Shown in pieces: positions 4,322 to 63,674 of a stretch of 64,000 nt of DNA (position 1 is its first letter; the number at the start of each line of letters is the position of its first letter). The notes under the pieces were generated by a model. That model was not told where the DNA came from. It did no database searches and saw only the letters and a program-made list of their open reading frames with translations. A program made the position numbers and the translations under genes. Location of the stretch: positions 7,131 through 71,130 of the forward strand of contig JBBSZV010000033.1 in the NCBI GenBank assembly GCA_038044525.1, given 5' to 3'. The stretch is from Nanobdellota archaeon (lineage in GTDB: Archaea > Nanobdellota > Nanobdellia > Woesearchaeales > GW2011-AR9).

Positions 4322-4348
4322 ATTTTTTAATTTATTTTTTTAATTATT

Positions 4349-4906: not shown

Positions 4907-4955
4907 CATTTTCGTTGCATAACTTTTAAAAACGTTTTTCCTTCTGTTTTAATAC

Positions 4956-7064: not shown

Positions 7065-7188
7065 GGTAAAAGATATCTTTATAAGCAAAATAGTCTTTTC
7101 TGTAGTAAAAAGAGGTGTTAATGGTGTTGATTATAGTGTTAAACAATAGAAATCTTAATAAAATCCTCTCTTTCTGCCCTATCTGGGG

Positions 7189-8252: not shown

Positions 8253-8291
8253 GAAACCGACCTAAAACTATATAAAATCAAACTTCTTTGT

Positions 8292-10267: not shown

Positions 10268-10274
10268 ATCAAAA

Positions 10275-12573: not shown

Positions 12574-13113
12574 ATGGCCTTCGACAACGAAAAGAAAACT
12601 TTCCTCTCCAAGACCGATAAAAGCAAGAAGGGGAGCATCGATGCAAAGATCATCCCCCTGCTGAAAACCATCAATGAGAAAAAAGATTATTACACCACTT
12701 CTTCCTGCTCAGGGAGAGCGTATCTTTGGGAAGGTTCCGGTAAAAAATCAGAAACGCAATGGCTGAAAGTGAGCCATGACCCGATAGGGGTGGATTTTTT
12801 TGAGACGGCGGATAAAAGCATGGTGTGGCTGCGGCTGGAAGGTATGATACTGCACGTAGCCTGTCGGGACCTGGAAGCGGCCAATGTTCTCTTGGATAAA
12901 GCGAGGAAATATTACAAGAAGAGTTCCATCCTAAGCGCCAGCAATAAAATAATTGTGGAATTAAGGGGCAGCGAAATCGTAGAGATGCCATTATATAAGG
13001 ATGGCAGATCATTGTTTTCCGGAGATTTAGGCTGGCTGCGGGATTTGATCAACAGTAAATTAAGCCGGATGTGGGGCACTTTAGAAAAGTTCAGAAAAGA
13101 TATTCGGGATTGA
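12574..13113 (+). CDS. taw3: tRNA wybutosine-synthesis protein Taw3 (TYW3 family).
   Basis: Contains the conserved TYW3 motif DYYTTSSCSGRAYLWEG. A length of 179 aa is typical. Confidence 0.6.
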   Translation: MAFDNEKKTFLSKTDKSKKGSIDAKIIPLLKTINEKKDYYTTSSCSGRAYLWEGSGKKSETQWLKVSHDPIGVDFFETADKSMVWLRLEGMILHVACRDLEAANVLLDKARKYYKKSSILSASNKIIVELRGSEIVEMPLYKDGRSLFSGDLGWLRDLINSKLSRMWGTLEKFRKDIRD

Positions 13114-15596: not shown

Positions 15597-17015
15597 TTAT
15601 TGTCTTCTAAAAAGCAGGAACAGCATCAGTATGACCATCACTGCTACTACCACGATGGCAATCACCAACAGAGCCATGATGTAATCGCTGGCGCCGTAGG
15701 ATAGTTTCTCTACCGTTTCGACGACTGCGGAAGAAGGCTGGCCGGAAGTATTTTCAGCCTCTACGGCCGGCTTATCCAGCTCTTCAGTATCTTCTTCTGC
15801 CACTTCTTCCTCTTCTGCGACTACCGGCGGTTCAGCGCAGCTCTTGACCGGAAGTTCTAAGCGCTGGTACTGCGAAAGCTGATTGTCATTGATGTACACA
15901 TTAAGGTCAAGGTAATAGGTTTTGGCTTTCGGGTTCTTAAGTTCCAGCGTGAATTCTTGGTTCCAATAATTGTTTTCTTTGGCGTATGGTTTCAGTTCAA
16001 TATTCTGGATAATTTCATTGATCCCCAATTCTGCATTGATTATGGATAATCCGGCAAATTCCTGGTGGTCGGTGCCGAAATTACGCAGTTCAACGTCCAG
16101 ATTAAATTCGGCGTCGCAGATGGTCACTGCTGCCGGCAGGATCTCCGCTTTGACGATGCGGACATCGTCATCATCAAGTTCGATCTCCAGCACCAATTCT
16201 TTTTCGATAGAATATTCGATGCCCTGTCCGTCTTCTGCAGTGATAGTCAGTTCTAAAGTATAGATGTCAGCATCAACATCTTTGCTGATCATGAAAGGGA
16301 TGGTAAATTCCAGGTTTTTTCCCGCTTCTAAGCTGGATTCCGGCAGATATTTGTCTTCCAGAGGCGTTTCAAACAAGTCGTCATCATCAGAATCGAGGGA
16401 TATTTCTATCTCATCTAAACTACCATCGGCTTTAAAATCGTTGTCAAATAAGTTCCGCAGGTAAAAAGTCATGGTTACCGGGGTATAAGGCTTCACTTCA
16501 TCGCCCAGATTGAAAGTGGCCGTGTCCTGATTCTTGAACTCTTCTTTTTGCGTATCGCCGCGGTAATTGACATATCTTATCTCCAGTTCTTTCAATTGCA
16601 GCATGGAAGCGGTATCTTGGTTCAGGTCAATGCTGTCTAATTGATTGTCATTAAGATCCTTGATGACGATAGTCCCGATCTTTTCTGTTCCCTGGTCTTT
16701 TTTATGCGGCACTTCGATGGAAAGCGTCATGCTTTTCCCGTTCTCAGGGATAGCTTCCTCTTTAGGTTCCCAATCATATCCTGAAGGAAGCCCAGTAATC
16801 TCTATCTTAACTGAAGTTGCCGGACCGTCATTGGTGATGGTGAACGCTTCCGTGGTCACCACGATGAAATCATCATCTTCATCCACAAATTGGCTGTAAT
16901 CTACGTTTAAGACCACTTCATTCTCGCTGATGCCCGGTGCGGCAGCAGCAAATGCTGATAAGAATAACATACTAAGTAATACTACAAGAGTGGTGATAAA
17001 TTTAGCTCTGTTCAT
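15597..17015 (-). CDS. Acidic cell-surface protein (signal peptide plus C-terminal TM anchor).
   Basis: Signal peptide MNRAKFITTLVVLLSMLFLSAFAAAA. C-terminus IMALLVIAIVVVAVMVILMLFLLFRRQ. An acidic EEEEVAEEDTEE linker lies before the anchor. Confidence 0.6.
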   Translation of the reverse strand: MNRAKFITTLVVLLSMLFLSAFAAAAPGISENEVVLNVDYSQFVDEDDDFIVVTTEAFTITNDGPATSVKIEITGLPSGYDWEPKEEAIPENGKSMTLSIEVPHKKDQGTEKIGTIVIKDLNDNQLDSIDLNQDTASMLQLKELEIRYVNYRGDTQKEEFKNQDTATFNLGDEVKPYTPVTMTFYLRNLFDNDFKADGSLDEIEISLDSDDDDLFETPLEDKYLPESSLEAGKNLEFTIPFMISKDVDADIYTLELTITAEDGQGIEYSIEKELVLEIELDDDDVRIVKAEILPAAVTICDAEFNLDVELRNFGTDHQEFAGLSIINAELGINEIIQNIELKPYAKENNYWNQEFTLELKNPKAKTYYLDLNVYINDNQLSQYQRLELPVKSCAEPPVVAEEEEVAEEDTEELDKPAVEAENTSGQPSSAVVETVEKLSYGASDYIMALLVIAIVVVAVMVILMLFLLFRRQ

Positions 17016-25397: not shown

Positions 25398-28300
25398 ATG
25401 ATAGGTTCGCAAAAAAAGAGATGCTGGAGAATTTTGGTTTTCATAGTCCTGGGGCTGTTCCTGAATCTTCCGATCGTAAGCGCATTAGAGATATCTAATG
25501 TCCGCGCCGAAATTATTTCACCTACTGAAGCAGAAATATCATGGGAAACTGATGAGCCTGCCGGAAGTTTTGTTGATTATGGTCTTTCAGAAGAAACCCT
25601 CGGAAGAGTCGGCGATGCCAGCCAAGTGGTGGAGCACATAGTAGCGTTATCTGATATTGCGCCGCAGTCAACTTATTATTTTCAGGTGCAGAGCGGAGAA
25701 GTCATAGATAATAATGATGGAAGCCTGTATTCTTTCAATACCCTCGCTCCCGACACTACCGCACCAGAAATAAATGTTGAATTGCCGGCAGCGGTGCAGG
25801 GAAACAGGATTGATTTCTCCGGAACCACTGAATTCGGAGCGACGGTCAATGTTTTTGTGAACGGCCCCTTGTTAAGGGTTGTGGCTGCCGACGCAGCTCT
25901 GCCTGACGATCCGTCACAGGGGAGATTTACCATCACTGATCTGGCTCTGGACAGCAATAAGGATAATCTGGTTAAAATAGAAGTGATTGACCTAGCTGGG
26001 AATGATGCATCGATGCAGGTGACCGTATTTTCAGACACCAGCAAACCAAAATTGGATTTGGTGGTCCTGCCGGAGTTCGTGAGCGAGAAAAATTTTATCC
26101 TGAGAGGGACTATCTCTGAGGAGAGCTCTTATGAGATTTTTATTGCTGAAGATTCTGTCGCTGAAGGTCAAGGAACTGCCTTGCAGGCCGAATTATCTTT
26201 AGAAGAAGGCGGAAACAAGATCAAGATTGTGATTACTGATAAGGCCGGCTGGGTGACTGAAGAGGAATTCAACATCATCTCTGATACCAAAGCACCTAAA
26301 GTAGAATTTGATTTCGCCAAAGGAAAGGAATATTACCAGGGAAATGCAGAGACTGACATTTCAGGGGCTACCGAACCTGGCGCAGAAGTGTATCTATTTA
26401 TTTTCCGTCCACTCACTTATGAATTCACTCCCACCTTTAACAAAGCTTGGGAAAAAGTTACCGCTGATGCGCAGGGAAGGTTTACCTTTGAGGAAGTAGA
26501 TCTGGAAAGCCCACCTATCAGTTTAGAAGATCTTGCTCCACGGCAAATTCCTTCAGGCTTAAATGCTGAAACTATTTTTCCTATAGAACAGATACAGGCG
26601 GCACAGAAATTTACCTATCATGTGTATTTAGTTGCCGAAGATAAAAGCGGCAAAACAGGATATGCAAAAAAGCTGGTCAATATCAATACCTGCTATTCTG
26701 CCGATTTTGATTTTGACGTGCAATCGCTGGCCAGGTTCCAGGCTCCTCTGCGATTAAACCCGACTTTGCTTGATGACGGCAGGGAAGAAGTAACTGCGGT
26801 ATTTAATTTTAGTTACCGCGGGAAAGGAATTTCAACCCAAGGCCAGTCAGCTTTCCAGATCCAGAACGTCCAGTTCGATAAGGCCTGCACTCAAGGGATG
26901 CTGGAAGACGACAGCACTAAGATAGGATGCAATATTTTCCCGCAGCAGCCGCGGCTGATGCCGAATGCTGATAAGACTGCCTGGTATATCACGGCGCCTC
27001 TTTTCACTACAGAAAAGTTCAGCGATAAGAAAGAAGATTTCTGGGACGAATTCGGCAGGCGGCAGATAACGTTCCCTCTGAAAATTAAAATTACTTACCG
27101 TGATAATCTGGGCGGCGGAAAGATGAGCGACCTTAAGACACAGGTATCTTGTTATGAGCTAGGTTATTTCATCGACATACCTCTCGAAAGCAAAAACATG
27201 ATTCCGGATTTCTTAGCTGAAGAAGGTCTGGATGCAATCGAATTTACTATCGATAAAATTGATATTGTTTTGCCTTATCTGGAAAATGCTATTTTAGTTA
27301 CGGGGATTGCCTGGGTAAGTTCGTTCATAGGTAAGTTAGCCGTCAGGTATGCCCGGCTGGTCAGTTCTAAATTAGAAGCTTTCTTCAGCAAAGGAAAAGC
27401 TAAGAATGAGCAATGTCCGGGGGATCAGGAAAAATATTATACCAAGAGTGAGATCCAGCACTGGAGAGAGCTGAAAGCGCGCGGCTTGCTGGAAGGAGAA
27501 GAAAGATTAAGAAAAGATTGGGAAGATGAATCGCAATCGATAGAAGAATTATGTCCGAGCACTGCTGGCCTGTGGGAAGCAGAAAAAGTTATTGATCAAG
27601 CCTACCGCTGGACCGGAGACAGAGTATTATGCCGGACCGTTCCTGCCGGATGGACTTCTACCAAAGATAAACCGGAAATTGATACCGTCATCGCGGGGCA
27701 GAACCAATGCACTGCCTCCAGCCGAGGCGTACCGCTTCTGGAAATTGAGAATTGCGGAAAGCGCATAGAAGAAAATACCAATATTGCTAATCCTAATGCC
27801 AAAGCAGCGCGGTTAGTCGACGAAGGAGAATTCACCTGTTACCAGTCGGGAGATTTCTTGTATTACGCAAATCAAGATTCAGCGACGACATTGCAAAATG
27901 GCGGTTCTTTAGTGCGGCTGGAAAGAGTTCACGATTTTGGTTTGAGCATTCAGCAGGCGGGATTATACGCTGGTGCAGGAGATTTGATTGCCTATCAGCC
28001 GCCAGGTTCTGACCAATATGTCATCGGGCAGGATAAAACCTGTGAACAGGCGTGCAAAAATCCGCGGAAATCCGGCTACCGAGCTTATGTGGAAAAAGGA
28101 TTAAGGACCGTCACTGCCGACGGACAGGAAGGATCTTTTGGCTGTTTCCAGGAAAGGGTCAACGAATTTGGAGATATAAACCCGGTTGGCGTCGCTACTC
28201 AGGATAATCCTAACGATCCCCAAGGGATTGGTTCCAGACAGTTTTCGGCAGGTTATACCCGCGACTGTTTCATCGATTATCAAAAAGGCGGTGTCACTCC

Positions 28301-30848
28301 CGGTGATGCGAATATCAATAATCCTTGTAACGTCCATGATGATTGCACCGGCGGAGCGTTATGTCTTTCCGGCGTTTGTTCCGCGCCTCCGTCTAATAGT
28401 GTTGCGCTAAAAGGATCAACTGACACCACCACCGGTTTATTGCAGTGCGTATGCACATACGACGAAAAGCAAGTGAAACATTATCCCGGTGTCAGGACGG
28501 CTATGAAAGAGCAGAATGGCATCGCTGAAGAGTGGTCTTATCATCAGCAACAAGTATTCAAAGAATCAAATAATCGTTTCGGAACGTATTATCCGGAATG
28601 GAGATATTATGGCGGCCGGGACTTTTCGTCTGCTTTTGGAGCAGATTACCTTTTAGATTATTTCCAGTCGGATAAACAGGTGCATCAAGTCAGCCCCAAC
28701 ACGCAGTTCTTAGGCGCATATCAAACGGTCTGCTTATCGCGGGTAAGAGCGCATTTAATCACATTAAAAGCAATTCTGGAAGGACTGCGCAATTGCATTC
28801 AGGAAGCAAAATACACCGGCCTGCGCGATGCAGGAGTTTGTAAAACTATTTTCACCCAGCAGGTATGCGGTTTAGTCTACAAAGCGATCGCTTACTTTGT
28901 CAACCAATGCAGCCCCTTTGATTTCAATGACGAAAGCAAAGGAACATTAGGGGGCATCGGCGCAGTTACTGAAGCGACCTTCGGCTCTATCGGGGAAGCC
29001 ATGCAGTCGTCCATCGATGATGTGAAAAGCGATTATGGCAACGCGCAGTTGAATAATTATTTTGCTGCCGGCGCAGAAGGATTGACTCAGTCTATGTGCA
29101 TGGCTGCTTTCGGCTACGACTGGCCGTTGGGCGCAGATTTTATTCTTGATGCTGCTTATGCAGTTCCAGGAAAAACAACTGTGCATGTAATTCCCGCGCA
29201 CCGGGAATTGTCAACTTACGATCCTTCTTCTGGGAATGCCGTCTATAATTACGAAGTCGGCGCTTTGATATTGCCGGGCTGCAGGGTCAGAAGTTATAAT
29301 GTTTATCTGAAATGCGTCGGTCCGGAAGATTCCGGAAAACCGGGCGTGCAATGCGGCGAGCAGGGCTGCGACTGCTTGCATACGACAGAAGTGAACTCAT
29401 TATTGGAAGGGGATAAGAAACATTCCCTGGATGGCGGCAGAGGATTTGATCTTAAGCCGAACGGATTTTTCAGCGTTCCCATACCTTCTCCGCAGAAAGT
29501 AAACAAACCGTTCAGGTACGACCACGTCGTGGTAGAGCTGCAGCTGGACCAGTCTGAACAAGGAAATGAAGACAAATGTTACGATACCGGATACGAAGAC
29601 GGAAAATTCTATTTCCCGATCGTTGATGTATCGCCGCCGGGAACGGGAGTATGCCAGGTGCAGCCATTGACGGGAAAATATACTTGTCCTGAATTCATGA
29701 GTTTATTTGGCGGTGAAGAAGGAGCATACCTGCAGGATCCGTACATCAGCTGTTATGATGCCGATACGCGTTCCTGGATTCCGTGCATTACGCCGAATAT
29801 CTTTACCAAGGGCGAAGAGATAAAAGTGCGCGCGGAAGCGGTCAGCGACGGAAAAAAATATTGCGTGAAAATGAGCACTTCGGGATTACCTCAGCAGGAT
29901 GTGCAGTTCCGACAACTGCCAGTGGGCATCCCAGGAAATTTCCCGGTGGAAATGTCTTTAGGTTCAGTCACGCCGAATTTGTTTACTGGTGCAACAACGA
30001 CTATAGTATTAACCGGCGGAGACAAGAGCTGCGAATCTAAATTAAAACTGATAGATTTCCCGGCGGGAGACATCGATACTGCAAGTTTGAAATTTACTTA
30101 CCAGAAATTAGGCGATGATAGTTACAGGATATTTGTTCCAGAAGGAATTTCAATTTCATCTGAAGGCGGTTATAGTGCCAATGGAGCAACTTTAACCAAG
30201 AATGGAAAAGAAGAGCTCACTTCTGCTGAAATACGAGAAGCCGTATTTGACTATAAAGGGATGCGTTTCAGCAACGCTGTCGGCGCTCCGGGAAGCGGGG
30301 ACAGCTGTGAATACAGAGTCAGGGCGGCGGCAGGGGCGCAGTACGCGCAGAACGAAAAGACCATTTCCGTCACCGCAGAATTATTGCAGCCGGATGCGGT
30401 AGGTAATTGTTACAATGCAGAGATCCCGGTCAAGAGCCAGATAGGGTATTCGAGATACACGCAGCCTATTAATCTGCGGTTGGAACCTTTAGTATCGCAG
30501 GCAGCCAGTCAGATGTATCAGGATTTCATGCGTGAAAATTATGCAAAAGTTATCGGCAATGCGGAAAGCATCGTCAACCGCGGCATCTCCGATATCGAAG
30601 ATGCGACCGCATTATATTATCTGGTCGCGGCGAAAATCGCAGACAGCCAGAAAAGGAATGTGGACTGGAAGGTTTCTTTCCGGGAAGATATCTGCGATCT
30701 GATCGGCGTGTTTAAAACCAGAAAATCCGGCAGCATACCTCTCGGCCAATATCCTGACGAAGTCAGGAGCAGCGCAGAATACAAGAAGATAGAAGCATAT
30801 TTCGGCGAGATTGAAAAAGAAGCCCAATGCGGAGTTACGAATGTTTAA
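25398..30848 (+). CDS. Giant secreted protein (1816 aa): signal peptide, an N-terminal fibronectin-III-like domain, Ig-like repeats, and a long Cys-rich C-terminal region.
   Basis: Signal peptide ...VFIVLGLFLNLPIVSALE. The FN3-like segment reads ISNVRAEIISPTEAEISWETDEPAGSFVDYGLSEE...STYYFQVQS. More than 60 Cys lie in the second half, including CNVHDDCTGGALCLSGVCS. Confidence 0.6.
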   Translation: MIGSQKKRCWRILVFIVLGLFLNLPIVSALEISNVRAEIISPTEAEISWETDEPAGSFVDYGLSEETLGRVGDASQVVEHIVALSDIAPQSTYYFQVQSGEVIDNNDGSLYSFNTLAPDTTAPEINVELPAAVQGNRIDFSGTTEFGATVNVFVNGPLLRVVAADAALPDDPSQGRFTITDLALDSNKDNLVKIEVIDLAGNDASMQVTVFSDTSKPKLDLVVLPEFVSEKNFILRGTISEESSYEIFIAEDSVAEGQGTALQAELSLEEGGNKIKIVITDKAGWVTEEEFNIISDTKAPKVEFDFAKGKEYYQGNAETDISGATEPGAEVYLFIFRPLTYEFTPTFNKAWEKVTADAQGRFTFEEVDLESPPISLEDLAPRQIPSGLNAETIFPIEQIQAAQKFTYHVYLVAEDKSGKTGYAKKLVNINTCYSADFDFDVQSLARFQAPLRLNPTLLDDGREEVTAVFNFSYRGKGISTQGQSAFQIQNVQFDKACTQGMLEDDSTKIGCNIFPQQPRLMPNADKTAWYITAPLFTTEKFSDKKEDFWDEFGRRQITFPLKIKITYRDNLGGGKMSDLKTQVSCYELGYFIDIPLESKNMIPDFLAEEGLDAIEFTIDKIDIVLPYLENAILVTGIAWVSSFIGKLAVRYARLVSSKLEAFFSKGKAKNEQCPGDQEKYYTKSEIQHWRELKARGLLEGEERLRKDWEDESQSIEELCPSTAGLWEAEKVIDQAYRWTGDRVLCRTVPAGWTSTKDKPEIDTVIAGQNQCTASSRGVPLLEIENCGKRIEENTNIANPNAKAARLVDEGEFTCYQSGDFLYYANQDSATTLQNGGSLVRLERVHDFGLSIQQAGLYAGAGDLIAYQPPGSDQYVIGQDKTCEQACKNPRKSGYRAYVEKGLRTVTADGQEGSFGCFQERVNEFGDINPVGVATQDNPNDPQGIGSRQFSAGYTRDCFIDYQKGGVTPGDANINNPCNVHDDCTGGALCLSGVCSAPPSNSVALKGSTDTTTGLLQCVCTYDEKQVKHYPGVRTAMKEQNGIAEEWSYHQQQVFKESNNRFGTYYPEWRYYGGRDFSSAFGADYLLDYFQSDKQVHQVSPNTQFLGAYQTVCLSRVRAHLITLKAILEGLRNCIQEAKYTGLRDAGVCKTIFTQQVCGLVYKAIAYFVNQCSPFDFNDESKGTLGGIGAVTEATFGSIGEAMQSSIDDVKSDYGNAQLNNYFAAGAEGLTQSMCMAAFGYDWPLGADFILDAAYAVPGKTTVHVIPAHRELSTYDPSSGNAVYNYEVGALILPGCRVRSYNVYLKCVGPEDSGKPGVQCGEQGCDCLHTTEVNSLLEGDKKHSLDGGRGFDLKPNGFFSVPIPSPQKVNKPFRYDHVVVELQLDQSEQGNEDKCYDTGYEDGKFYFPIVDVSPPGTGVCQVQPLTGKYTCPEFMSLFGGEEGAYLQDPYISCYDADTRSWIPCITPNIFTKGEEIKVRAEAVSDGKKYCVKMSTSGLPQQDVQFRQLPVGIPGNFPVEMSLGSVTPNLFTGATTTIVLTGGDKSCESKLKLIDFPAGDIDTASLKFTYQKLGDDSYRIFVPEGISISSEGGYSANGATLTKNGKEELTSAEIREAVFDYKGMRFSNAVGAPGSGDSCEYRVRAAAGAQYAQNEKTISVTAELLQPDAVGNCYNAEIPVKSQIGYSRYTQPINLRLEPLVSQAASQMYQDFMRENYAKVIGNAESIVNRGISDIEDATALYYLVAAKIADSQKRNVDWKVSFREDICDLIGVFKTRKSGSIPLGQYPDEVRSSAEYKKIEAYFGEIEKEAQCGVTNV

Positions 30849-33890: not shown

Positions 33891-35780
33891 ATGAGCGTCG
33901 AATCATTCTTAGAGATCTGTAAACGGCAGTATGAGCCGCAGCATCTTTCCGTATTTAATGCAGCTTTGGCCTTTTCTCAAAAGCATCTCGGCGAAGTAAA
34001 ACGATTGGCAGGTGATTCCTTTTTTGACCATAATGTCCGGGCGGGAGAAATCTTGGCGGACAGCAAAGTGTCGCCGGAAGTGGTGGTCGCCGGTCTGCTG
34101 CATGGGATTTTAAAATATTCTTCTGAAAAAGAGGTCTTAAATATTTTCGGCAAAGAGATCCTGCTTTTGCTGAAAGGAGAAGAAGAAATCAAGGCGGTCA
34201 AATCAAAAAATCCTCTTCTGGAAGCCGAAGCCCTGCGGAGAATATTGCTTGCGACATTAAGAGACGTACGGGTTATTTTTGTTAAGCTCGCCGCTAAATT
34301 AGATAATCTTAGGGCCATCTCGGTGCTTCCCGAGGAAGACCAGAGACGCATCGCAGAAGAAGTAATGGAAGTATATGCGCCGCTGGCTAACAGATTGGGA
34401 TTGGAGAAAATAAAAAATCCTCTGGAAGATTTGGCGCTGCAGATCCTGAATCCGGAAAAATATCGCGAAATAACCGAATTCCTGGAAGAATCACGTGAGC
34501 AGCGGGAAGCGTTGATCAAAGAAATGATTCAATCGGTGAAAGAGTTGGCCGCGGGAAAAGTTGAGATCATCAAAATCAAAGGCCGTTCCAAGCACATCTA
34601 CAGCATCTACAAGAAGCTGGTGCAGCGCTGCGTGCCTTTAGCAGAACAATATGATTTGTCGGGCATCAGGGTAATTGTTCCGGAAGTAAATGATTGCTAT
34701 ACTCTCTTGGGACTCTTGCACGAGAAGCTCGAGTCCGCGGAAGGAAGATTAAAAGATTATATCGCCAACCCTAAACCTAACTTTTATCGTTCTCTTCACA
34801 CCGGAATTCTGTCGTCATCAGGAAAAATTGTGGAGATTCAGATTCGCACCCCGGAAATGGATGAGCTTGCTGAGGAAGGGCTGGCTGCGCACTGGCGGTA
34901 TAAGAAACTGAATTCCGATGAATTATTTGAAAAGAAAATTGCCTGGCTGAAAGGAGTTTTAGATATGCAGAAGGAAGAAAACCACGAATTTTTAGAGATG
35001 GCTAAAGTAGACGTGTTTGGGGATAATATCTATTGCTACACGCCAAAAGGCGACGTTAAAGAACTGCCTAAGGGAGCAAATATCCTTGATTTTGCTTATA
35101 TGATCCATGAAGAAGTCGGAAACCATGCGGTAGGAGCGCACGTGAACGGAAAATTCGTCTCTTTGAAACAGCAGCTTTCTTCCGGAGATGTAGTGGAGAT
35201 ACTTACCAACAAAAGCCAGCGCCCCCGACGCGACTGGCTGAAATTAGTCAAATCTGCGAATGCCAGAAATAAGATTCGGAAATCTCTTAAAGAATATGAT
35301 AAGCTTCCGGCTCTTCATTTTAAGCAGCTTAAACCGGTGGTGACAGAAGAGCAGGGCATTTTAGCAGAAGCGCCCGACTATGCCAGCGCAGTATGCGTAT
35401 TAGCTAAATGCTGCAATCCTCTGCCGGGAGAAGATATTGCCGGCTTAATCACTAAAAGAAGAGTCATTTCCGTCCACAGGATCGATTGCCGCGCGGCATT
35501 GAAAGAGCAGGAGCGCTGGGTGGCGGTGCAATGGAAAAATGGATTCAACCAAAAAATAAGATTTTATGCTGTAGCTGAGGAAAGGAGCGGCCTGTTGGCT
35601 GATCTTTTAAACGTCATAGCCAATACCGGTTTTGAGGTTAAGGAAGCAAAAGCAAAATTGTTAGACATAACCTTAGCGCAATGCTCTTTTTTAGTGATAC
35701 CAAAAGATTTGGAACATCTGAAAGAACTGGTAAGGCGGGCGCAGAAAGTAAGGGGGATAAAAAAGATGTATTTCGGATGA
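33891..35780 (+). CDS. Long RelA/SpoT homolog (RSH) with HD-like, (p)ppGpp synthetase, TGS and ACT domains.
   Basis: The synthetase motifs are GRSKHIYSIYKKL, IRVIV...CYTLLGLLH, KDYIANPKPNFYRSLHT, VEIQIRTPEMDELAEEGLAAHWRYK. The TGS domain reads YCYTPKGDVKELPKGANILDFAYMIHEEVGNHAVGAHVNGKFVSL. In the HD region, LLHGIL replaces the usual LLHDVVED, so the hydrolase may be inactive. Confidence 0.75.
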   Translation: MSVESFLEICKRQYEPQHLSVFNAALAFSQKHLGEVKRLAGDSFFDHNVRAGEILADSKVSPEVVVAGLLHGILKYSSEKEVLNIFGKEILLLLKGEEEIKAVKSKNPLLEAEALRRILLATLRDVRVIFVKLAAKLDNLRAISVLPEEDQRRIAEEVMEVYAPLANRLGLEKIKNPLEDLALQILNPEKYREITEFLEESREQREALIKEMIQSVKELAAGKVEIIKIKGRSKHIYSIYKKLVQRCVPLAEQYDLSGIRVIVPEVNDCYTLLGLLHEKLESAEGRLKDYIANPKPNFYRSLHTGILSSSGKIVEIQIRTPEMDELAEEGLAAHWRYKKLNSDELFEKKIAWLKGVLDMQKEENHEFLEMAKVDVFGDNIYCYTPKGDVKELPKGANILDFAYMIHEEVGNHAVGAHVNGKFVSLKQQLSSGDVVEILTNKSQRPRRDWLKLVKSANARNKIRKSLKEYDKLPALHFKQLKPVVTEEQGILAEAPDYASAVCVLAKCCNPLPGEDIAGLITKRRVISVHRIDCRAALKEQERWVAVQWKNGFNQKIRFYAVAEERSGLLADLLNVIANTGFEVKEAKAKLLDITLAQCSFLVIPKDLEHLKELVRRAQKVRGIKKMYFG

Positions 35781-42933: not shown

Positions 42934-43956
42934 GGCTAATATGAAACCCTTGTAATTCTGATGAATATCAGAATTACTTGTTTTCCCGCTTCTAACATTC
43001 TGTCAATGTTATAGGCAACGATTCTACACATTGCTTCCACTTTTTGGTTCTTTACATCCTTTGATTTGATACTAAACCCAAACTTTCTTTTGAGAATACT
43101 GAAAGTAGTCTCAACCTTGTTCCTTTGAAGGTATTCTCCATAATCAAACACATCAAACGTCTCTTTTCTGTATCTTCCTTTTCTTCTATGCTTTGGCACA
43201 TCTAATCTTTTCTGGAGAATAAACGGGTATGCTCCCAGCTCTTCAAATACTATTTTGAAGAGCTTCTCGGCATCATATCCCCTATCTCCGTAAAAAGCTT
43301 CTGGTCGGTAATTTTTTGCCAATCTCCGGGTCATTGTATATGCATCAATCAGGTCGTGTCTTGCTTTTTTTCTAAGCTTAAATTGTAGGATAAAATAATG
43401 CTTTATATCGACGATAATACTTAGCTTCAAGAACGGACGTTTTTTGTATGCTTTTCCGATTCTTTTGCAGTAATGTGGACTGGCATTATCCAAACTAATG
43501 CCCGTTCCATCGATAGCAACCTTTTCAGGTTGCTCAATAAGTTTGCTAAACGCAGCCATAAGCTTATCGAAGATAGCAGTAGGAAGTCTCTTCGCAAACT
43601 TGATAAGAGTTGTATATTCAGGGAGCTTATTTAGCCCTAAATATGCCCTAAGCGTGATATTATCGCTTAAATCTTCAAGCAATTCCTTATAAGTAAACTT
43701 ACGGAATTGCTTGTATACCAGCAAAAAGAGATGCTGGTATTGGGTATAAAGCTTATTTGAGAACTTGGAGTTGTGAAGCATAAGCTCCGCTTCTCTGAAC
43801 AATTCATAGCAAAAATCAGCAAGTTTTTTAAATTTAGAAGTTATTATTTCCATTCGTAGTTCACCTCGTCGATAAAAGCGTCTTAAGACAACACTTTATC
43901 GACGTGAACTACTTTATATAACTTCTGAATCAAAGCCGGAGGGTTTCATATTAGCC
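42934..43956 (-). mobile_element. Complete IS element of about 1.0 kb (IS5/IS4-superfamily-like) with 16-bp perfect TIRs (GGCTAATATGAAACCC) and a 9-bp TSD.
   Basis: The TIRs are at 42934-42949 and 43941-43956 (reverse complement). A single DDE transposase ORF lies inside. The flanking 9-bp direct repeats indicate a recent insertion. Confidence 0.75.
42936..43853 (-). CDS. DDE transposase (IS5/IS4-like).
   Basis: Motifs AIDGTG, GDRGYD and NKVETTFSILKRKFG match the D-D-E / R-x3-E-x3-K signatures of the IS4/IS5 superfamily. 305 aa. Confidence 0.7.
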   Translation of the reverse strand: MEIITSKFKKLADFCYELFREAELMLHNSKFSNKLYTQYQHLFLLVYKQFRKFTYKELLEDLSDNITLRAYLGLNKLPEYTTLIKFAKRLPTAIFDKLMAAFSKLIEQPEKVAIDGTGISLDNASPHYCKRIGKAYKKRPFLKLSIIVDIKHYFILQFKLRKKARHDLIDAYTMTRRLAKNYRPEAFYGDRGYDAEKLFKIVFEELGAYPFILQKRLDVPKHRRKGRYRKETFDVFDYGEYLQRNKVETTFSILKRKFGFSIKSKDVKNQKVEAMCRIVAYNIDRMLEAGKQVILIFIRITRVSY

Positions 43957-52229: not shown

Positions 52230-52319
52230 GGGCTCGTGGTCTAGTGGCTATGATGCTGCCCTTACAAGGCGGATGTCGCCGGTTCGAGATGATTGTCAAC
52301 GAAAATCCGGCCGGGCCCA
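52230..52319 (+). tRNA. tRNA-Val (anticodon UAC) with a 17-nt non-canonical intron in the T-loop (about position 58/59).
   Basis: Manual cloverleaf: acceptor GGGCTCG/CGGGCCC plus discriminator A. D-arm GTC-TAGTGGCTAT-GAT. Anticodon stem CTGCC/GGCGG with loop CTTACAA. Variable loop ATGTC. T-stem GCCGG/CCGGC. These enclose 24 nt (a TTCGA..AT loop plus 17 nt GATGATTGTCAACGAAA). 90 - 17 = 73 nt mature. Confidence 0.7.
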
Positions 52320-58085: not shown

Positions 58086-59105
58086 TTGTTTGTTTCTTTG
58101 GCAGTATTATCTTTTTTTATCCTCCGGCCGCTCGTACTGGCAATTTTTGTAGGAGCGCTATTAGCTTATACCTTTTATCCGATATACAAGTTCACCGCAA
58201 AAAAAACCAATAGCCCTATAATCTCTTCGTTTTTAGTATGTTTCTTAGTCCTTCTCTTGGTGATAATCCCTGCCGGTTTTTTGATAAAGGTGCTTATACA
58301 GGAATCATATGTCATCTATCTGCTGGTCAAACAGAAATTAGCGGTGGGGTTGTTTAACAGCTGCACTACCGACCTGTGCAAGGCCATAACGGAGATGAGC
58401 CAGAGCGAGGTCGTCAGCTATCAGCTGAAAGAGATCACCAAAAATGCCGCCGAATGGGTCATCAGTAAAGGCTCATCATTTTTAGTGAACTTACCGCGCC
58501 TGCTGATGAATTTATTTGTGGTTTTCTTTACCCTATTCTTTTTCCTGAAGGATGGGGAAAGTTTGCTCAATAAGCTGCACAATTATTTTCAGATCCGCCA
58601 GAAAAATTATGCTTTGATCCTTGACCGATTGAGAGAAATAATCCATGGGGTGGTTTACGGTTATCTATTGGTAGCTTTGATTCAGGGGATATTCGGCGCG
58701 TTAGGATTTTTCCTGTTCGGCATCCCTTCACCTTTTTTCTGGGGGGTAGTGATATCATTTTTTGCATTGATTCCGGCTATAGGTACGGGAGTGATCTGGA
58801 TCCCCGCTTCATTGTTCTTGTTGTTAGACGGGATATTTCAGGGTTCTGATGCCGGCATATGGATGGGGATAGGCTTGTTTGTATATTGTTTTATCTTTGT
58901 GGGAAGCGTGGATAATATTCTCCGCCCTAAACTTATCGGCGACAAGGCTAAAGTCCACACCGCGATCATCATGCTGGGTATCTTCGGCGGGATATTGTTT
59001 TTAGGGCCGCTGGGGGTAATCCTTGGGCCGTTAGTACTGTCGCTGACCGCAGAAGTGATGTGGATCTATCTTGCGAAAAATAATTACCATAAAAAACTAT
59101 TATAA
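58086..59105 (+). CDS. AI-2E family transporter (UPF0118/PerM-like).
   Basis: 339 aa with about 8 TM helices. The family-typical C-terminal region reads NILRPKLIGDKAKVHTAIIMLGIFGGILFLGPLGVILGP. Confidence 0.65.
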   Translation: MFVSLAVLSFFILRPLVLAIFVGALLAYTFYPIYKFTAKKTNSPIISSFLVCFLVLLLVIIPAGFLIKVLIQESYVIYLLVKQKLAVGLFNSCTTDLCKAITEMSQSEVVSYQLKEITKNAAEWVISKGSSFLVNLPRLLMNLFVVFFTLFFFLKDGESLLNKLHNYFQIRQKNYALILDRLREIIHGVVYGYLLVALIQGIFGALGFFLFGIPSPFFWGVVISFFALIPAIGTGVIWIPASLFLLLDGIFQGSDAGIWMGIGLFVYCFIFVGSVDNILRPKLIGDKAKVHTAIIMLGIFGGILFLGPLGVILGPLVLSLTAEVMWIYLAKNNYHKKLL

Positions 59106-59133
59106 TAAACCAGTTATAATAAAACTGTTATAA

Positions 59134-59595
59134 TCAGAATCCGGTTCCCCTGCTGTAACCTACCAGCTGCTGGAGGTAATCGGAAAGCTGTATCTGCTGC
59201 GGAATATGCCGTAAAAAGAAATTTTTACCTAAATTGATGGAATAAGTTTTGAAGAACCGGTCTAAAGGATCGAGATGGACCGCGGTGTTGTTTATATCGA
59301 TGTAAAAGATGGTTTCTTTTCCTTTGGTTACTCTGTTGCGGTAAAATAAGTAAGGCTGGCTTACTTTCCGCACCGCCAGACCGGTGCCCAAAAGGACGAG
59401 GAGCAGCAATAGTATCAAAGAGCCGGTTTTTAGCGCAGTTTCCTGTCCGGCGCTTAATTCCAGTAAGGATACATTAAGCAATACGCCGAGGTAAAAAATG
59501 GTAGATAAGATCGTCAGAGAAGCTATTTTAGGCGCTAAGGCCCGGGATTTAGATTCGTACACGGTGTAGATAGGCATTTCCGGAGGAAGTTCCAT
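59134..59595 (-). CDS. Hypothetical membrane protein.
   Basis: 153 aa with two hydrophobic helices. Confidence 0.3.
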   Translation of the reverse strand: MELPPEMPIYTVYESKSRALAPKIASLTILSTIFYLGVLLNVSLLELSAGQETALKTGSLILLLLLVLLGTGLAVRKVSQPYLFYRNRVTKGKETIFYIDINNTAVHLDPLDRFFKTYSINLGKNFFLRHIPQQIQLSDYLQQLVGYSRGTGF

Positions 59596-59675
59596 TAGAT
59601 AATGAAAATGATATTAATTTAAATGGTTTATGGTAGATTTTTGGGATAAATTAATGGTCGATAATGAAAAATAAA

Positions 59676-59821
59676 TGGGCCCACCCGGACTTTCGGTATC
59701 AAGCATTTCGAACCGGGGATCTCCTCGATACAGAAAATGCCAGCGTTTTAAGCGCTTTGCATTTGCGTCAACGAGATGTCATCTGCGGCGCATCTCTGCG
59801 TAGCCGCTAGACCATGAGCCC
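59676..59821 (-). tRNA. tRNA-Val (anticodon GAC) with three introns: D-loop about 19 nt, anticodon loop 37/38 about 37 nt, T-loop 17 nt. The mature length is 73 nt.
   Basis: On the minus strand: acceptor GGGCTCA/TGGGCCC plus A. D-arm GTC-TAGCGGCTA[CGCAGAGATGCGCCGCAGA]T-GAC. Anticodon stem TCTCG/CGAGG with loop TTGACG[37-nt intron]T. Variable loop AGATC. T-stem CCCGG/CCGGG enclosing TTCGA[AATGCTTGATACCGAAA]GT. The T-loop intron position and sequence pattern match the other tRNA-Val. Confidence 0.6.
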
Positions 59822-59878
59822 ATCTTTGTAAGAAAGACTTATATTCTTTTATAAATCTTATTTATTTATTCTTGAAAA

Positions 59879-60520
59879 ATGGCAGATGCGGAAACCCTGT
59901 TCTTTAGCGGCCTGATAGAACTGCAGTATGGAAAGGACGTGGAAAAAGAATTGAAGATAATAGCAGAAGATGTTTCCTGGGCCAAGGGATGGCCTGACAA
60001 TATCATCTCATTCTGGAATGCCGAATCCTTCATGTGGAGGCATAAGATCAGCAAGGAAGCAAGAGATCTGATCGCCGGCGAATTATCCTTTCTGAAGGGC
60101 GGGAAGAATCTGGATGTGGGCTGCGGCGCTTATTCCTATCTGTCTTCGGTAGGTTTTGATATTTCGGAAAAGATGCTGCTGCTGAACGGCCACTGCACGG
60201 AAAAAGTCCGCGGGGATCTGGAAGGCGCATTGCCGTTTCACGACAGCAGCTTTGACTCCATCACTGCGGTTTTTGTCCTGAATTATGTGTCCGGCTATCA
60301 TCAGCTGCTGCAGGAAATAAAACGAATCCTACGTCCGGACGGCCGTTTTGCAGCAGTTCTATCTGCCAACAGGATCAACAGTTGGCAGCGGCAGAAAGAA
60401 GTGAATTGTTTTGCTGCTGAAGGATGGGTTTCTATCTTAAAAAGAGCCGGGTTTACCGTTGATTTTCAGGTGAAAGAGGGGTTGTGGTTTTTCAGATGCA
60501 AAGCCCTTTCTATTAGATGA
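59879..60520 (+). CDS. Class I SAM-dependent methyltransferase (Methyltransf_11-like).
   Basis: Motif I NLDVGCGAY. The post-I/II region reads LPFHDSSFDSITAVFVL...LRPDGRF. Confidence 0.6.
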   Translation: MADAETLFFSGLIELQYGKDVEKELKIIAEDVSWAKGWPDNIISFWNAESFMWRHKISKEARDLIAGELSFLKGGKNLDVGCGAYSYLSSVGFDISEKMLLLNGHCTEKVRGDLEGALPFHDSSFDSITAVFVLNYVSGYHQLLQEIKRILRPDGRFAAVLSANRINSWQRQKEVNCFAAEGWVSILKRAGFTVDFQVKEGLWFFRCKALSIR

Positions 60521-60586
60521 ATGTAGGTAGATTTATAAATTTAAAATGATTAATTTCTTTATTTAGTTATAACTATAAAAAAGGTA

Positions 60587-61897
60587 ATGAAAATGAAGAA
60601 ATATCTGGTGCTGGTAGGTCTTTTATTATTGCTTCCCGTGGTTTTGGCGCAGGAAAATGAAATTGTTTCGGAAGATCCGGGCGTGACTCCCGATTCTTTT
60701 TTATGGGGCGTAGATAAGGCTTTGGAGCAGATCTCCTTATTGCTCGCTGCTGATCCGGAAGCAAAAGCGGCCAAAGGGCTGGAAATCGCCCGGGAACGTC
60801 TGTTGGAAGTAAAGGCCATGGCTGAAGCGAAGAACCTCCCTGCTCTCGAGAAAGCGCAGAATGAGCACAGCAAAATTCTTCTTAAGGTAAAAGAAAATAT
60901 CAAATCGATGGCCGATGACGATCCTGAAGCTCAGCTGGAGAATGAATTAAAAATAGAAAAAGAGCTGCAGGAACACGAAAAGGAAATAGAAGAAGTAAGC
61001 GCGAAATTAAAAGTCAAGATAAAGGTTGAAGGCGTTTTGTCTGCGGAACAGCAGGCGCAGCTGGACGAATTCTTGGCTTCGTTGAGCGAAAGCGCTGAAG
61101 ATGTTAAAGTGGAGATTAAAAATAAGAAAGAATCTACCAAGGTAACCATCAAGGAGAAGACCGGCAAGAGCGAAGAAGAAATAGAAGATGATGTGGAAAA
61201 ATCAGAGCGGGAGCAAGGTATCGGCGAAGAGATAAAAGTGCGGGCTGAGACTGCCGGCGGGAAATCTTTTGTCAAAGTGGATCTTAGTTTCGATACTGCT
61301 GCTACCGATAAGGAAGCGCTTCTGGCGGAGATCGTGGAACGGTTCAGCCTGGATGCGGAAAACGCAGCTTCTCTACTGAAGGTTGAAGAAGAGGCAGAAG
61401 ATGATGAAGATAGGCTGCAGGTCAAAGTAAAGACCGGCGCAGAAGGTTCAGAAGTGGATGTAAAACTGCGTTTTACCATAAACTCTACGGAAGAGAGCGC
61501 CATCGTCGCTGCCTTGGTCGAGAGGACGCAATTAACTCCTGAACAGATCGAAGCGGTATGGCGGCTGAAAGAAGAAAAACAGAAAGAAGGTAAGGAGATC
61601 GAGATCGAAGTGGAGATAGAGGAAGGCGAAGCGCAGGTTAAGGTCGAGACCGACAGCAGCGAGATGGAATTTGTGCTGGAAGAGACCGACCGCGAGAAAA
61701 TAGTGCAGGAGATTGCTTCCCGCCTGGGAATCTCCGTGGAAGAAGTCTTGAAGTACGCGACTTTTGAAGAAGAATCGGAAGAAAAATCTAAGAGAACGGA
61801 AGAGCCGGAGACGGAAGAAGACGAAGCCGGGGATGAGGATGAAGATTCTGAAGAGGAAGATGAGGAAAGCGGAAGCAACGTCTCCGGCAATCAATAA
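60587..61897 (+). CDS. Secreted, highly charged (K/E-rich) coiled-coil protein with an acidic C-terminal tail.
   Basis: Signal peptide MKMKKYLVLVGLLLLLPVVLA. 436 aa, with more than 35% of residues E, K or D. It ends EEDEAGDEDEDSEEEDEESG. Confidence 0.4.
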   Translation: MKMKKYLVLVGLLLLLPVVLAQENEIVSEDPGVTPDSFLWGVDKALEQISLLLAADPEAKAAKGLEIARERLLEVKAMAEAKNLPALEKAQNEHSKILLKVKENIKSMADDDPEAQLENELKIEKELQEHEKEIEEVSAKLKVKIKVEGVLSAEQQAQLDEFLASLSESAEDVKVEIKNKKESTKVTIKEKTGKSEEEIEDDVEKSEREQGIGEEIKVRAETAGGKSFVKVDLSFDTAATDKEALLAEIVERFSLDAENAASLLKVEEEAEDDEDRLQVKVKTGAEGSEVDVKLRFTINSTEESAIVAALVERTQLTPEQIEAVWRLKEEKQKEGKEIEIEVEIEEGEAQVKVETDSSEMEFVLEETDREKIVQEIASRLGISVEEVLKYATFEEESEEKSKRTEEPETEEDEAGDEDEDSEEEDEESGSNVSGNQ

Positions 61898-61940
61898 GCT
61901 GATGGGATGATAAAAGCTGGTAAGCGGATGAGCAGATAAA

Positions 61941-63404
61941 ATGGCAGTTGATATATTTTCCAAGGAACCGGCATTCGCTGACGACCCTACTTATCGATCT
62001 AATCTTCTGAAAGAATATGGTTTTGGAGAAGAACGGGCAGAAATAATTACCGGCGAATATCAAACTACGGGGTTTCCTGAATCTTTAAGGCACTGTCGTC
62101 TGTTGTGGGAAGTGTTCGATCTTGGTCTGGAAGAGCCGTATTTCTGGATATTAGATTATTTTAAAGATGCTTTCCCCATAATCGAGAAATTAGAAGATTC
62201 TTTTGCCGCAGCAGAAAATTCTGCATTTTTTGGAGTGACCCAGCAGCGTTTAGGTGCGCAGCAGGATAAGATATCACAGTTCTTAGCCCAAGTCGGAAAG
62301 ATGATCAAGGAACTGTTTCAGATGGTGCGGGAATTGCGGATAATTGATGAGCGGTTAGATTATTATAACGGGGTAGAATCAGAATTATCCAAGTCCATAA
62401 GCCAGCGGGGCAAAAGCCACGAAATCACTTTGAAGGGATTGTTTGTAGATTTAGTGCAAGGGGGAGGAAAAAGCGCCGCATCAGTGTATGGGATGGCCAG
62501 AGAACTGGAATTCATCACTCTTCCGGATTTATTTTTTGATGCTCCGCCTTTAAAGAATACCGGAGAACTGGAAAGGCACATCGAATCGCTAAGCCAGAAT
62601 TTCAACAAGAATGTCCTTCGGGTTTTACAGCGGCATCTTAACCAATATCTGGAATGGCGGACGCGGACGCATAAAGAGCATATGCAAAGAAAAATCTTCC
62701 AGCTTAAATATCTAAAACAGCACTTTGACGTCATCAAGATGTACCTAACTTGGGTCAAGCCTTACCTGCGGCACGTCCGTGCCTTGACTCTGAAAGGAAA
62801 AAGCATGAGTTCGGCGGAGATGGTTTCCGCTTTTGAAGGAAGCATGCTGGACGTGGAAATTTTGGCGCGCAAGCCGTTGGAGCCGTCGAAGAAAGCCAGT
62901 TCCTGTGTCTTAGCTACGTTCAATTACCGGACGAGAGCGGAAATGAAAGTGCAGCAGGAAGGCTATCAGCGCGGCCCGATCCATATCGGCAAGATGGTAG
63001 TCACGTTCAGGGCTTATGCCTGGACGAACGAACAAGTGGATAATTATAAAAAACTTAAAGATAAAGAGATGTTTGATCTGTTCGGCGATGTTTCTTCTTC
63101 AGTGCAGGCAGCCATGGAATCTTTAGGGCAGGAATTATATCATTATCTTGAAGAGGCAGAAGGGAAAGCTGTGCAGGAAAAGAAAGCGGCCGAGAAAAAG
63201 CCAGCAAAAACTTTTACCGAGAAATTCCTGGGAGATTTTTATACGCCGCGGGGAGCGAAGGAATCCAGAAAAACGCGTAAGCAGGAAGGATTAGCTGCAG
63301 CTCAGGCTATGGCTGATGCAGAGAAGTGCGAAGGAGCGGCTAAATTTCATGCATTCAATGTTTTTCATCTATTCAAGAAAGCGCACCGGATGGTAGCATG
63401 GTGA
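61941..63404 (+). CDS. Hypothetical protein.
   Basis: 487-aa ORF, no motif. Confidence 0.35.
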   Translation: MAVDIFSKEPAFADDPTYRSNLLKEYGFGEERAEIITGEYQTTGFPESLRHCRLLWEVFDLGLEEPYFWILDYFKDAFPIIEKLEDSFAAAENSAFFGVTQQRLGAQQDKISQFLAQVGKMIKELFQMVRELRIIDERLDYYNGVESELSKSISQRGKSHEITLKGLFVDLVQGGGKSAASVYGMARELEFITLPDLFFDAPPLKNTGELERHIESLSQNFNKNVLRVLQRHLNQYLEWRTRTHKEHMQRKIFQLKYLKQHFDVIKMYLTWVKPYLRHVRALTLKGKSMSSAEMVSAFEGSMLDVEILARKPLEPSKKASSCVLATFNYRTRAEMKVQQEGYQRGPIHIGKMVVTFRAYAWTNEQVDNYKKLKDKEMFDLFGDVSSSVQAAMESLGQELYHYLEEAEGKAVQEKKAAEKKPAKTFTEKFLGDFYTPRGAKESRKTRKQEGLAAAQAMADAEKCEGAAKFHAFNVFHLFKKAHRMVAW

Positions 63405-63434
63405 CTGTATTTTTTTAACATAGAGGTATAGAAA

Positions 63435-63674
63435 ATGGATAACTTGGAAAATAAAATTTTAAAACAGAACGGGAATGAACCAATTAAACCGGACGGAAAA
63501 CAGTGGCTGCCTCTGGGCATCGGCGTTTATTTTGCAGTGAAAGATGCATTACAAGGCAAACCGCACATTATGGATCCGAGTAATCGGGTGAGGCTGTATG
63601 CCAGTGCATTCTATCACGGCATGATAAGCGCATATCCTATTTATCTTGGCATAAAAGATCTTGTTCAAAATTGA
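63435..63674 (+). CDS. Hypothetical small protein.
   Basis: 79-aa ORF downstream of the upstream gene, on the same strand. Confidence 0.3.
   Translation: MDNLENKILKQNGNEPIKPDGKQWLPLGIGVYFAVKDALQGKPHIMDPSNRVRLYASAFYHGMISAYPIYLGIKDLVQN

Follow-up and report, generated by a model that had tools for sequence, protein, structure and literature searches.

Anatomy and detection of the locus

The DNA analyzed here is a 64,000-nt stretch of contig JBBSZV010000033.1 (called the window below; unless another contig is named, coordinates refer to it) from a groundwater Woesearchaeon of the DPANN archaea. On its minus strand, at 59821..59676, lies a 146-nt locus that we read as a tRNA-Val(GAC) gene made of four exons and three inserts. 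In minus-strand order, exons and inserts alternate as GGGCTCATGGTCTAGCGGCT-ACGCAGAGATGCGCCGCAG-ATGACATCTCGTTGACG-CAAATGCAAAGCGCTTAAAACGCTGGCATTTTCTGTA-TCGAGGAGATCCCCGGTTCGAA-ATGCTTGATACCGAAAG-TCCGGGTGGGCCCA. The parts of the locus and its flanking elements are as follows, where BHB stands for the bulge-helix-bulge motif of archaeal splicing.

59848 to 59855, minus strand: TATA-box-like element TTTATAAA, at -34 to -27 relative to tRNA position 1 (read from the sequence)
59802 to 59821, minus strand: exon 1, 20 nt, tRNA positions 1-20a; acceptor 5′ strand, U8, D-stem 5′ strand, and D-loop to G18 G19 C20 U20a
59783 to 59801, minus strand: intron 1, 19 nt, ACGCAGAGATGCGCCGCAG, D-loop site 20a/21, in a BHB frame
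59766 to 59782, minus strand: exon 2, 17 nt, positions 21-37; A21, D-stem 3′ strand, A26, anticodon-stem 5′ strand, and loop UUGACG (anticodon GAC)
59729 to 59765, minus strand: intron 2, 37 nt, canonical site 37/38, hBHBh′ motif
59707 to 59728, minus strand: exon 3, 22 nt, positions 38-59; anticodon-stem 3′ strand, variable loop, T-stem 5′ strand, and T-loop UUCGAA
59690 to 59706, minus strand: intron 3, 17 nt, ATGCTTGATACCGAAAG, T-loop site 59/60, relaxed hBH (BHL) motif
59676 to 59689, minus strand: exon 4, 14 nt, positions 60-73; U60, T-stem 3′ strand, acceptor 3′ strand, and A73
59666 to 59675, minus strand: T-rich tract TTTATTTTTC, abutting the discriminator (read from the sequence)

Splicing the exons in silico gave a product of 73 nt, GGGCTCATGGTCTAGCGGCTATGACATCTCGTTGACGTCGAGGAGATCCCCGGTTCGAATCCGGGTGGGCCCA, which ARAGORN identified as tRNA-Val(gac) with a score of 119.7. 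The spliced molecule has the cloverleaf bases U8, A14, G18, G19, A21, U33, G53, U54, U55, C56, G57, A58 and C61, as well as a G15:C48 pair, G37 on the 3′ side of the anticodon and the discriminator A73. The acceptor stem contains 7 bp, one of which is a U-G pair, and CCA is not encoded at the 3′ end of the gene. Upstream, a block AATAAGATTTATAAAAG was kept in the syntenic orthologs L021, L027 and L029, while the flank further out diverged; the position and conservation of TTTATAAA suggest that it is an archaeal TATA-type promoter element. The T-tract 3′ of the gene was present in all orthologs, and TTTATTTTTC is likely an archaeal transcription terminator.

Standard searches did not find this gene. 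ARAGORN in default mode reported no tRNA in the entire 64-kb window, and the unspliced locus had no match when anticodon introns were searched for with -i or -i0,200. With -ps80 the only call at the unspliced locus was an opposite-strand Ser(cga) containing an 80-nt "intron", which was judged spurious. With -ps90 the whole window gave a tRNA-Ser(gga) at 16107-16199 (plus strand) that lies within a 472-aa open reading frame (ORF; 15597-17015) and is probably a false positive. Rfam returned nothing for the whole window at the gathering threshold, only chance matches to snR3 and Xist for 59600-59900 at E<=10, and nothing for two-intron orthologs at E<=1.

A custom scanner similar to SPLITS was also used. 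Its anchors are an acceptor helix of 7 bp, U8, and a T-stem of 5 bp with TTC after it; from there it tries all BHB-compatible excisions up to three per candidate, and scores the products by ARAGORN. On the real 64 kb it reported two genes only, and its best solution for tRNA-Val(GAC) consisted of exactly the three introns parsed by hand. The reversed window and two shuffled windows yielded zero calls from 1,518-10,386 spliced candidates each. A preliminary description of this DNA had proposed a tRNA-Val(GAC) in which removal of three inserts, 19 nt in the D-loop, 37 nt at 37/38 and 17 nt in the T-loop, leaves 73 nt. The identity agrees with the ARAGORN call and every number proved accurate. 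It had also predicted that standard finders would miss the gene and had suggested ARAGORN -i as a check; the prediction holds for ARAGORN default, for -i, which found nothing unspliced, and for Rfam.

Orthologs and splicing motifs

Orthologs were located by synteny and by exact-match scans with exon 3 in species-representative genomes and metagenomes. The resulting set consists of ten distinct haplotypes, the window included, from related Woesearchaeota; three loci from the metagenome scan (L036-38) were unrelated intronless bacterial-type tRNAs matched through a shared T-arm and were left out. Proteins encoded in the flanks assign the window to groundwater assemblies from Hainich and to the NCBI MAG GCA_964359915.1. 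The uS2 protein of the window is 91% identical to a "Candidatus Woesearchaeota archaeon" protein, and all named matches among the homologs of uS2 and of the adjacent methyltransferase are from Woesearchaeota, Nanoarchaeota or Nanoarchaeia. The related third-party annotation metagenome-assembled genomes (MAGs) L029-L032 are titled "uncultured Methanosarcinales archaeon", which is likely a taxonomic mislabel given these homologs. The intron lengths of the ten haplotypes, in nt, are listed below.

Window haplotype: D-loop 19, anticodon loop 37, T-loop 17
L017: D-loop 19, anticodon loop 37, T-loop 30
L021: D-loop 19, anticodon loop 38, T-loop 0
L027: D-loop 32, anticodon loop 37, T-loop 49
L029: D-loop 19, anticodon loop 41, T-loop 49
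L030: D-loop 0, anticodon loop 39, T-loop 19
L031: D-loop 0, anticodon loop 43, T-loop 34
L032: D-loop 20, anticodon loop 43, T-loop 22
L033: D-loop 52, anticodon loop 38, T-loop 50
L035: D-loop 0, anticodon loop 41, T-loop 26

The exons and the introns behaved in opposite ways. Exons 2 and 3 were identical in 10/10 haplotypes, even though the flanks were 77-90% identical or unalignable. Exon 1 was invariant apart from acceptor-stem changes matched in exon 4, with the combinations GGGCTCA/TGGGCCC, GGGCCCA/TGGGCCC, GGACCCA/TGGGTCC and GGACCTG/CAGGTCC; all of these changes, at three pairs, were compensatory. All ten spliced products scored 119.7-121.0 with ARAGORN. The introns, by contrast, varied in sequence and in length, from 0 to 52 nt in the D-loop, 37 to 43 nt in the anticodon loop and 0 to 50 nt in the T-loop. 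Where present in other haplotypes, the T-loop introns were 19-50 nt and mostly unrelated in sequence. In L027 (2433-2623, minus strand), a 13-nt tandem duplication (two copies of GCTACGCAGAGAT) extends the D-loop intron to 32 nt, and the BHB frame is intact at both junctions.

Some alleles lacked an intron altogether. In L021-23 the T-loop intron was absent and the T-loop read as an intact GGTTCGAA↓TCCGGG (↓ marks the junction), which fixes the 59/60 junction uniquely at the site predicted from the BHB motif. L030 and L035 had no D-loop intron, and their D-arm, GGTCTAGCGGCT↓ATGAC (GGCT↓ATGAC), contained an 8-nt D-loop, AGCGGCTA. L031 also had no D-loop intron, its D-loop being AGCGGCA. No allele without the 37/38 intron was found; it was present in all ten haplotypes.

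All three introns sit in a frame of 3-nt bulge, 4-bp helix and 3-nt bulge at the required junctions, with the cut placed where the endonuclease makes it, after the second bulge base; this cut-site assumption agreed empirically with the junctions of the intronless alleles. Two 3-nt bulges around a 4-bp helix constitute the archaeal splicing motif (PMC5829648, PMC3239211). The D-loop motif has GCGG/CCGC (4/4) as its central helix H, with CU↓A and AG↓A as bulges; its inner helix h′, CGCA/UGCG, comprises 4 bp and its outer helix h 2 bp. In the anticodon-loop motif, the 5-bp anticodon stem serves as h, UUGA/UCUG (3/4, one U-U) as H and the 6-bp AAAUGC/GCAUUU as h′, around an inner hairpin AGCG/CGCU; CG↓C and UA↓U form its bulges. 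The T-loop motif combines the 5-bp T-stem as h with UUCG/CGAA (4/4) as H and AG↓U as the 3′ bulge but lacks an h′, which makes it a relaxed hBH (BHL). The BHB geometry was found in 26/26 real introns of the ten haplotypes and in 3.2% of random position pairs within the precursors, although the 26 introns are not independent observations because the haplotypes are related. In the alignment of the anticodon arm with its intron, 94.7% of the cells in h, H, h′ and the inner hairpin were paired, compared to 36-52% in slid registers, and h′ contained one UA<->CG compensatory pair; this covariation is modest, since there were just eight sequences, all related. The preliminary description had expected a BHB or relaxed hBH motif at each junction and an AAATGC/GCATTT fold of the anticodon intron, and had listed some DPANN/ARMAN-like groups, beside Thermoproteales, among the few archaeal lineages with multi-intron tRNAs. 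The motifs were indeed in frame at all three junctions, the fold was recovered around an AGCG...CGCT hairpin, and the uS2 and methyltransferase homologs place the host among the Woesearchaeota.

The unconstrained minimum free energy (MFE) structure of the precursor had -59.3 kcal/mol (z = -3.8) and matched the acceptor stem, the helix of the D insert and the hBH motif of the T-arm exactly. Besides the relatedness of the haplotypes, several results weigh against a gene with three spliced introns. The full three-BHB model had about -46 kcal/mol, which is about 13 kcal/mol above the MFE, and the register of the MFE structure was slipped in the D and anticodon arms, so that folding alone does not establish the BHB motifs. 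The central helix of the anticodon BHB carries a U-U mismatch in 7/8 distinct sequences, and the outer helix of the D-loop intron has just 2 bp in the strict register. In addition, a Pfam scan of about 50 window ORFs revealed neither EndA nor RtcB.

The D-loop junction deserves separate consideration. The 5-bp helix GCGGC/GCCGC allows two 4-bp registers, and the MFE structure uses the shifted one, in which a 17-nt intron (CGCAGAGATGCGCCGCA) would be removed to leave a 75-nt tRNA with a 10-nt D-loop, or part of the insert might be retained. The equal ARAGORN score of the 75-nt product, 119.7, likewise speaks for this register and against ours. It would have a 3-bp h′ and no h, compared to a 4-bp h′ and a 2-bp h for the 19-nt register, and the intronless alleles L030 and L035, with their 8-nt D-loop, and L031 fit the 19-nt register, with a 1-nt A/A sliding ambiguity (A↓...↓A) in L030 and L035. 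Neither the ARAGORN score nor folding can by itself fix this junction; the 19-nt boundary follows from the intronless orthologs, and we consider a different register or partial retention improbable.

A decaying pseudogene, in which three insertions inactivated an old tRNA-Val while a functional copy persists elsewhere in the genome, would also be rejected by standard tRNA finders. Another Val(GAC) gene is possible outside the 64-kb window, and the locus is known here from DNA sequence alone. Yet all 73 exon bases were identical in orthologs with flanks 77-90% identical or unalignable, and the exon changes that did occur were compensatory and confined to the acceptor stem, the three-intron allele L033 included. 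The 26 insertions, whatever their length or sequence, all kept the 4-bp helix and the bulges at the junction, and the promoter-like block was conserved. None of these kept features is expected of a pseudogene, and we give this explanation very little credence.

The remaining explanation is that the region codes for a 48-aa plus-strand protein (59664-59810) and resembles a tRNA only by coincidence. Several public assemblies, the NCBI MAG GCA_964359915.1 among them, carry this ORF as a gene-caller prediction. In every ortholog, however, the ORF was destroyed or re-framed, and the longest opposite-strand ORFs there were 13-55 aa with unrelated sequences; it is not conserved because the intron indels are not multiples of three. 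The invariant blocks were the tRNA exons and the variable blocks lay between them, which is the opposite of a coding pattern. A coding origin of the region is hardly conceivable, and the ORF annotation at 59664-59810 (plus strand) is almost certainly spurious. A C/D-box guide RNA within the introns was also considered and rejected, since no pair of C (RUGAUGA) and D (CUGA) boxes was seen by eye and the introns are too short.

Taken together, with the intronless alleles, the exon conservation, the compensatory changes, the BHB frames and the broken ORF in view, no reading other than a spliced tRNA accounts for the pattern of conservation. Its strongest support comes from the natural orthologs that lack the T-loop or D-loop insert at the predicted junctions and from the compensatory changes in the acceptor stem and the intron helix. 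Hence, we propose, with a probability of roughly 0.9, that 59821..59676 is a functional tRNA-Val(GAC) gene with three BHB-type introns spliced by proteins.

At lower identity the synteny was lost: in L024-26, where the methyltransferase is 66% identical, the tRNA no longer adjoins the methyltransferase gene. L024 (1221-1326, minus strand; MAG GCA_035288985.1) contains a tRNA with an intron 5′ of the anticodon, which ARAGORN -i identified as Ile(GAU) with a 33-nt intron at position 32. The scanner parsed the same tRNA as Gln(UUG), which is doubtful and less plausible than Ile(GAU).

A second tRNA-Val gene and intron turnover

The other gene reported by the scanner was a tRNA-Val(UAC), which in its unspliced form was found neither by ARAGORN nor by Rfam.

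52230 to 52319, plus strand: tRNA-Val(UAC), 90 nt, with one 17-nt hBH intron at 59/60 (52289-52305, ATGATTGTCAACGAAAA); ARAGORN score 117.3 after splicing

Its intron ATGATTGTCAACGAAAA is identical to intron 3 of the Val(GAC) gene at 12/17 positions. Orthologs of the Val(UAC) gene were found on four related Woesearchaeal contigs, all on the minus strand: L039 (3015-3156), L040 (2800-2922), L041 (3587-3696) and L042 (2792-2945). Their 59/60 introns were 16, 50, 37 and 81 nt, respectively. L039 has an additional anticodon-loop intron of about 54 nt, and in L039-L042 the gene is inverted relative to its neighbours, compared with the window.

The variation among the Val(GAC) haplotypes suggests that related strains have lost, gained and swapped introns very recently in what is very probably a functional gene. 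The window and L005/L017 (contig Hain_H41_01um_R1_14327) form a near-clonal pair. Along window positions 59072-63520, the 4,432 bp that lie outside the intron contained only 2 single-nucleotide differences, each at a distance of over 3 kb from it, and the T-loop intron was wholly replaced, with an unrelated 30 nt in place of the 17 nt; coverage of this contig is about 3x, so chimerism of the assembly is possible.

A second comparison involved both genes. The Val(GAC) genes of L027, L029 and L033 and the Val(UAC) gene of L040 share a family of 59/60 introns of about 50 nt, which over their first 28 nt are distinguished only by a compensatory exchange, from C-G to G-C, within the hairpin AAGGGCAGUCUGCCCUU. 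Since the anticodon and T stems differ between the Val(GAC) and Val(UAC) tRNAs, the presence of this intron in both isoacceptor genes indicates that it was transferred, either by transposition or through gene conversion, in line with a proposal made for Thermoproteales (PMC4033280). The shared family thus suggests intron transfer or gene conversion between isoacceptor genes, together with selection on the intron structure. Similar introns at the same position of different tRNA genes, a mark of mobile introns in the Thermoproteales model, are seen here in a comparison of only two tRNA genes, for which gene conversion is also possible. The idea that the introns are copies of a repeated or mobile element gained no support from the sequence covered, as no further copies were found in the 64-kb window or the fetched loci.

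These observations raise the possibility, which we put forward tentatively and regard as rather doubtful, that the 59/60 site of tRNA-Val genes in this Woesearchaeal clade is a hotspot at which short structured introns continue to be inserted, replaced and lost over the time in which strains diverge, with the family of about 50 nt moving between the GAC and UAC genes. Ordinary recombination among diverged alleles is an alternative explanation of the turnover at this site.

Putative splicing pathway and relation to known systems

Based on the sequence and its comparison among haplotypes, the following pathway can be proposed. Transcription from the TATA-type archaeal promoter would give a precursor of about 150 nt, as suggested by the conserved TTTATAAA and the downstream T-tract. 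Sequence and comparison show that in this precursor each intron pairs with the adjacent exon to form a 4-bp helix between two 3-nt bulges: G15-G18 with CCGC in the D-loop, U32-A35 with UCUG in the anticodon loop, and U54-G57 with CGAA in the T-loop. By analogy with established archaeal tRNA splicing, EndA would cut after the second base of each bulge, and an RtcB-type ligase would presumably join the four exons into the 73-nt tRNA. End processing and then CCA addition would follow; the CCA is expected to be added post-transcriptionally because none is encoded. Since G18, G19 and U54-G57 are paired to the introns, the contact between the D-loop and the T-loop would form only after those introns are removed.

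The T-loop motif is only a relaxed hBH, and the host endonuclease would therefore have to be of a broad-specificity type. Relaxed hBH motifs are cut only by broad-specificity endonucleases, namely the (alpha-beta)2, the epsilon2 and the DPANN alpha4 enzyme with an L3 loop (PMC3239211, PMC5829648), and such EndA types have been described for DPANN and TACK archaea. For this host, the crenarchaeal (alpha-beta)2 type with its L1/CSL loop is an unlikely enzyme, given that no L1 loop was found in DPANN (PMC5829648).

Several other genes of the window were recorded. Two tRNA-modification genes lie close together, one for a GCD14/TrmI-type methyltransferase (11381-12124, minus strand) and one for TYW3 of the wyosine pathway (12574-13113, plus strand). 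We take the former to be the m1A58 enzyme, which acts on the T-loop beside the 59/60 intron site. A full-length RelA/SpoT-type protein of 629 aa with HD, RelA_SpoT, TGS and ACT domains is encoded at 33891-35780 (plus strand). RelA/SpoT homologs of such length are typically bacterial and uncommon in archaea, and this gene may have been acquired horizontally. An IS-type DDE transposase (DDE_Tnp_1 and DUF772) is located at 42936-43853 (minus strand), and a very large ORF of 1,816 aa at 25398-30848 (plus strand), next to genes for large surface-type proteins that contain PKD, CARDB and S-layer domains.

As many as three introns per archaeal tRNA have been documented (PMC4033280, PMC8450103), and multi-intron tRNA genes are known in the Thermoproteales Pyrobaculum, Thermofilum and Caldivirga (Sugahara 2007/2008 and Fujishima 2010, summarised in PMC4033280, PMC8450103 and PMC3218864). 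The genes in that order resemble the present one in having at most three BHB-type introns per gene, at 37/38 and at non-canonical sites, with relaxed motifs and with similar introns across tRNA genes; the similar introns in different Thermoproteales tRNA genes were read as intron transposition (Fujishima 2010, cited in PMC4033280). They differ in that the Thermoproteales are hyperthermophilic crenarchaea, whereas the host here is a mesophilic groundwater DPANN archaeon with a small genome, and in the turnover at strain level seen here.

Within DPANN, the closest known case is ARMAN-2 (Ca. Micrarchaeum). Its pre-tRNA-Cys(GCA) has a 13-nt hBH intron at 59/60 that was cleaved in vitro by the host endonuclease, and its pre-tRNA-Pro(GGG) has two T-loop introns (PMC3239211). 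The tRNA-Cys gene shares with ours the DPANN host, the 59/60 site, an hBH/BHL motif with the T-stem as h, and T-loop bases paired to the 3′ end of the intron. ARMAN-2 belongs to another DPANN phylum and the intron to another tRNA, and the ARMAN-2 enzyme is of the epsilon2 type, reported only from the Micrarchaeum lineage. The text of PMC3239211 that was consulted describes no three-intron gene with D-loop, 37/38 and 59/60 introns.

Two further systems share single features with this locus. The pre-tRNA-Glu(UUC) of M. kandleri contains a canonical intron and a relaxed HBh′ intron in the D-loop (PMC5829648), and thus also combines a non-canonical D-loop intron with a 37/38 intron in one gene. 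Unlike the present host, M. kandleri is a euryarchaeal hyperthermophile, and its gene has two introns instead of three; the D-loop intron here has both bulges in frame and a short h. In Caldiarchaeum subterraneum, variation at the locus for tRNA-Thr(GGU) was read as recent intron gain (PMC3293823), and there too the alleles of one gene in a natural population differ in intron number. There the change was associated with a 1.8-kb element that encodes a recombinase and with gene splitting, whereas the inserts here are 0-52 nt and no linked element is present in the flanks.

The gene was found in a lineage in which such genes had been anticipated. Disrupted tRNAs and broad-specificity EndA variants occur in DPANN (PMC5829648), and the survey of DPANN genomes by Kaneta et al. 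2018, which included one Woesearchaeota genome, reported more tRNA disruption and expected "unidentified disrupted tRNA genes" (PMC5829648). In the literature searched, such genes are not described individually for this lineage. For a specialist the gene alone is unsurprising, and the value of the finding lies in the gain, loss and replacement of introns at the strain level and in what it reveals about the failure of annotation in DPANN.

Neither ARAGORN nor Rfam detects the gene, and in public records its place is taken by a 48-aa protein on the wrong strand, which is almost certainly spurious. DPANN genomes are routinely reported with incomplete tRNA sets. Hidden tRNA genes like the two described here indicate that part of this gap is an artefact of annotation and not biology, and the artefact affects estimates of genome completeness as well as claims of host dependence for tRNAs. 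The known maximum of three introns per tRNA now appears in a mesophilic Woesearchaeon, far from the Thermoproteales, in which such genes are best documented, and the gene would imply that its host has a splicing endonuclease capable of cleaving relaxed hBH motifs.

For the question of how introns arise in archaeal tRNA genes, and why, the ortholog set offers a compact data set on intron gain, with presence and absence at two sites, a near-clonal replacement, and one intron family in two isoacceptor genes. Should an active process be at work at the 59/60 site, be it templated gene conversion, reverse splicing or intron transposition, these mesophilic DPANN populations would offer a natural setting in which the gain of tRNA introns can be watched.

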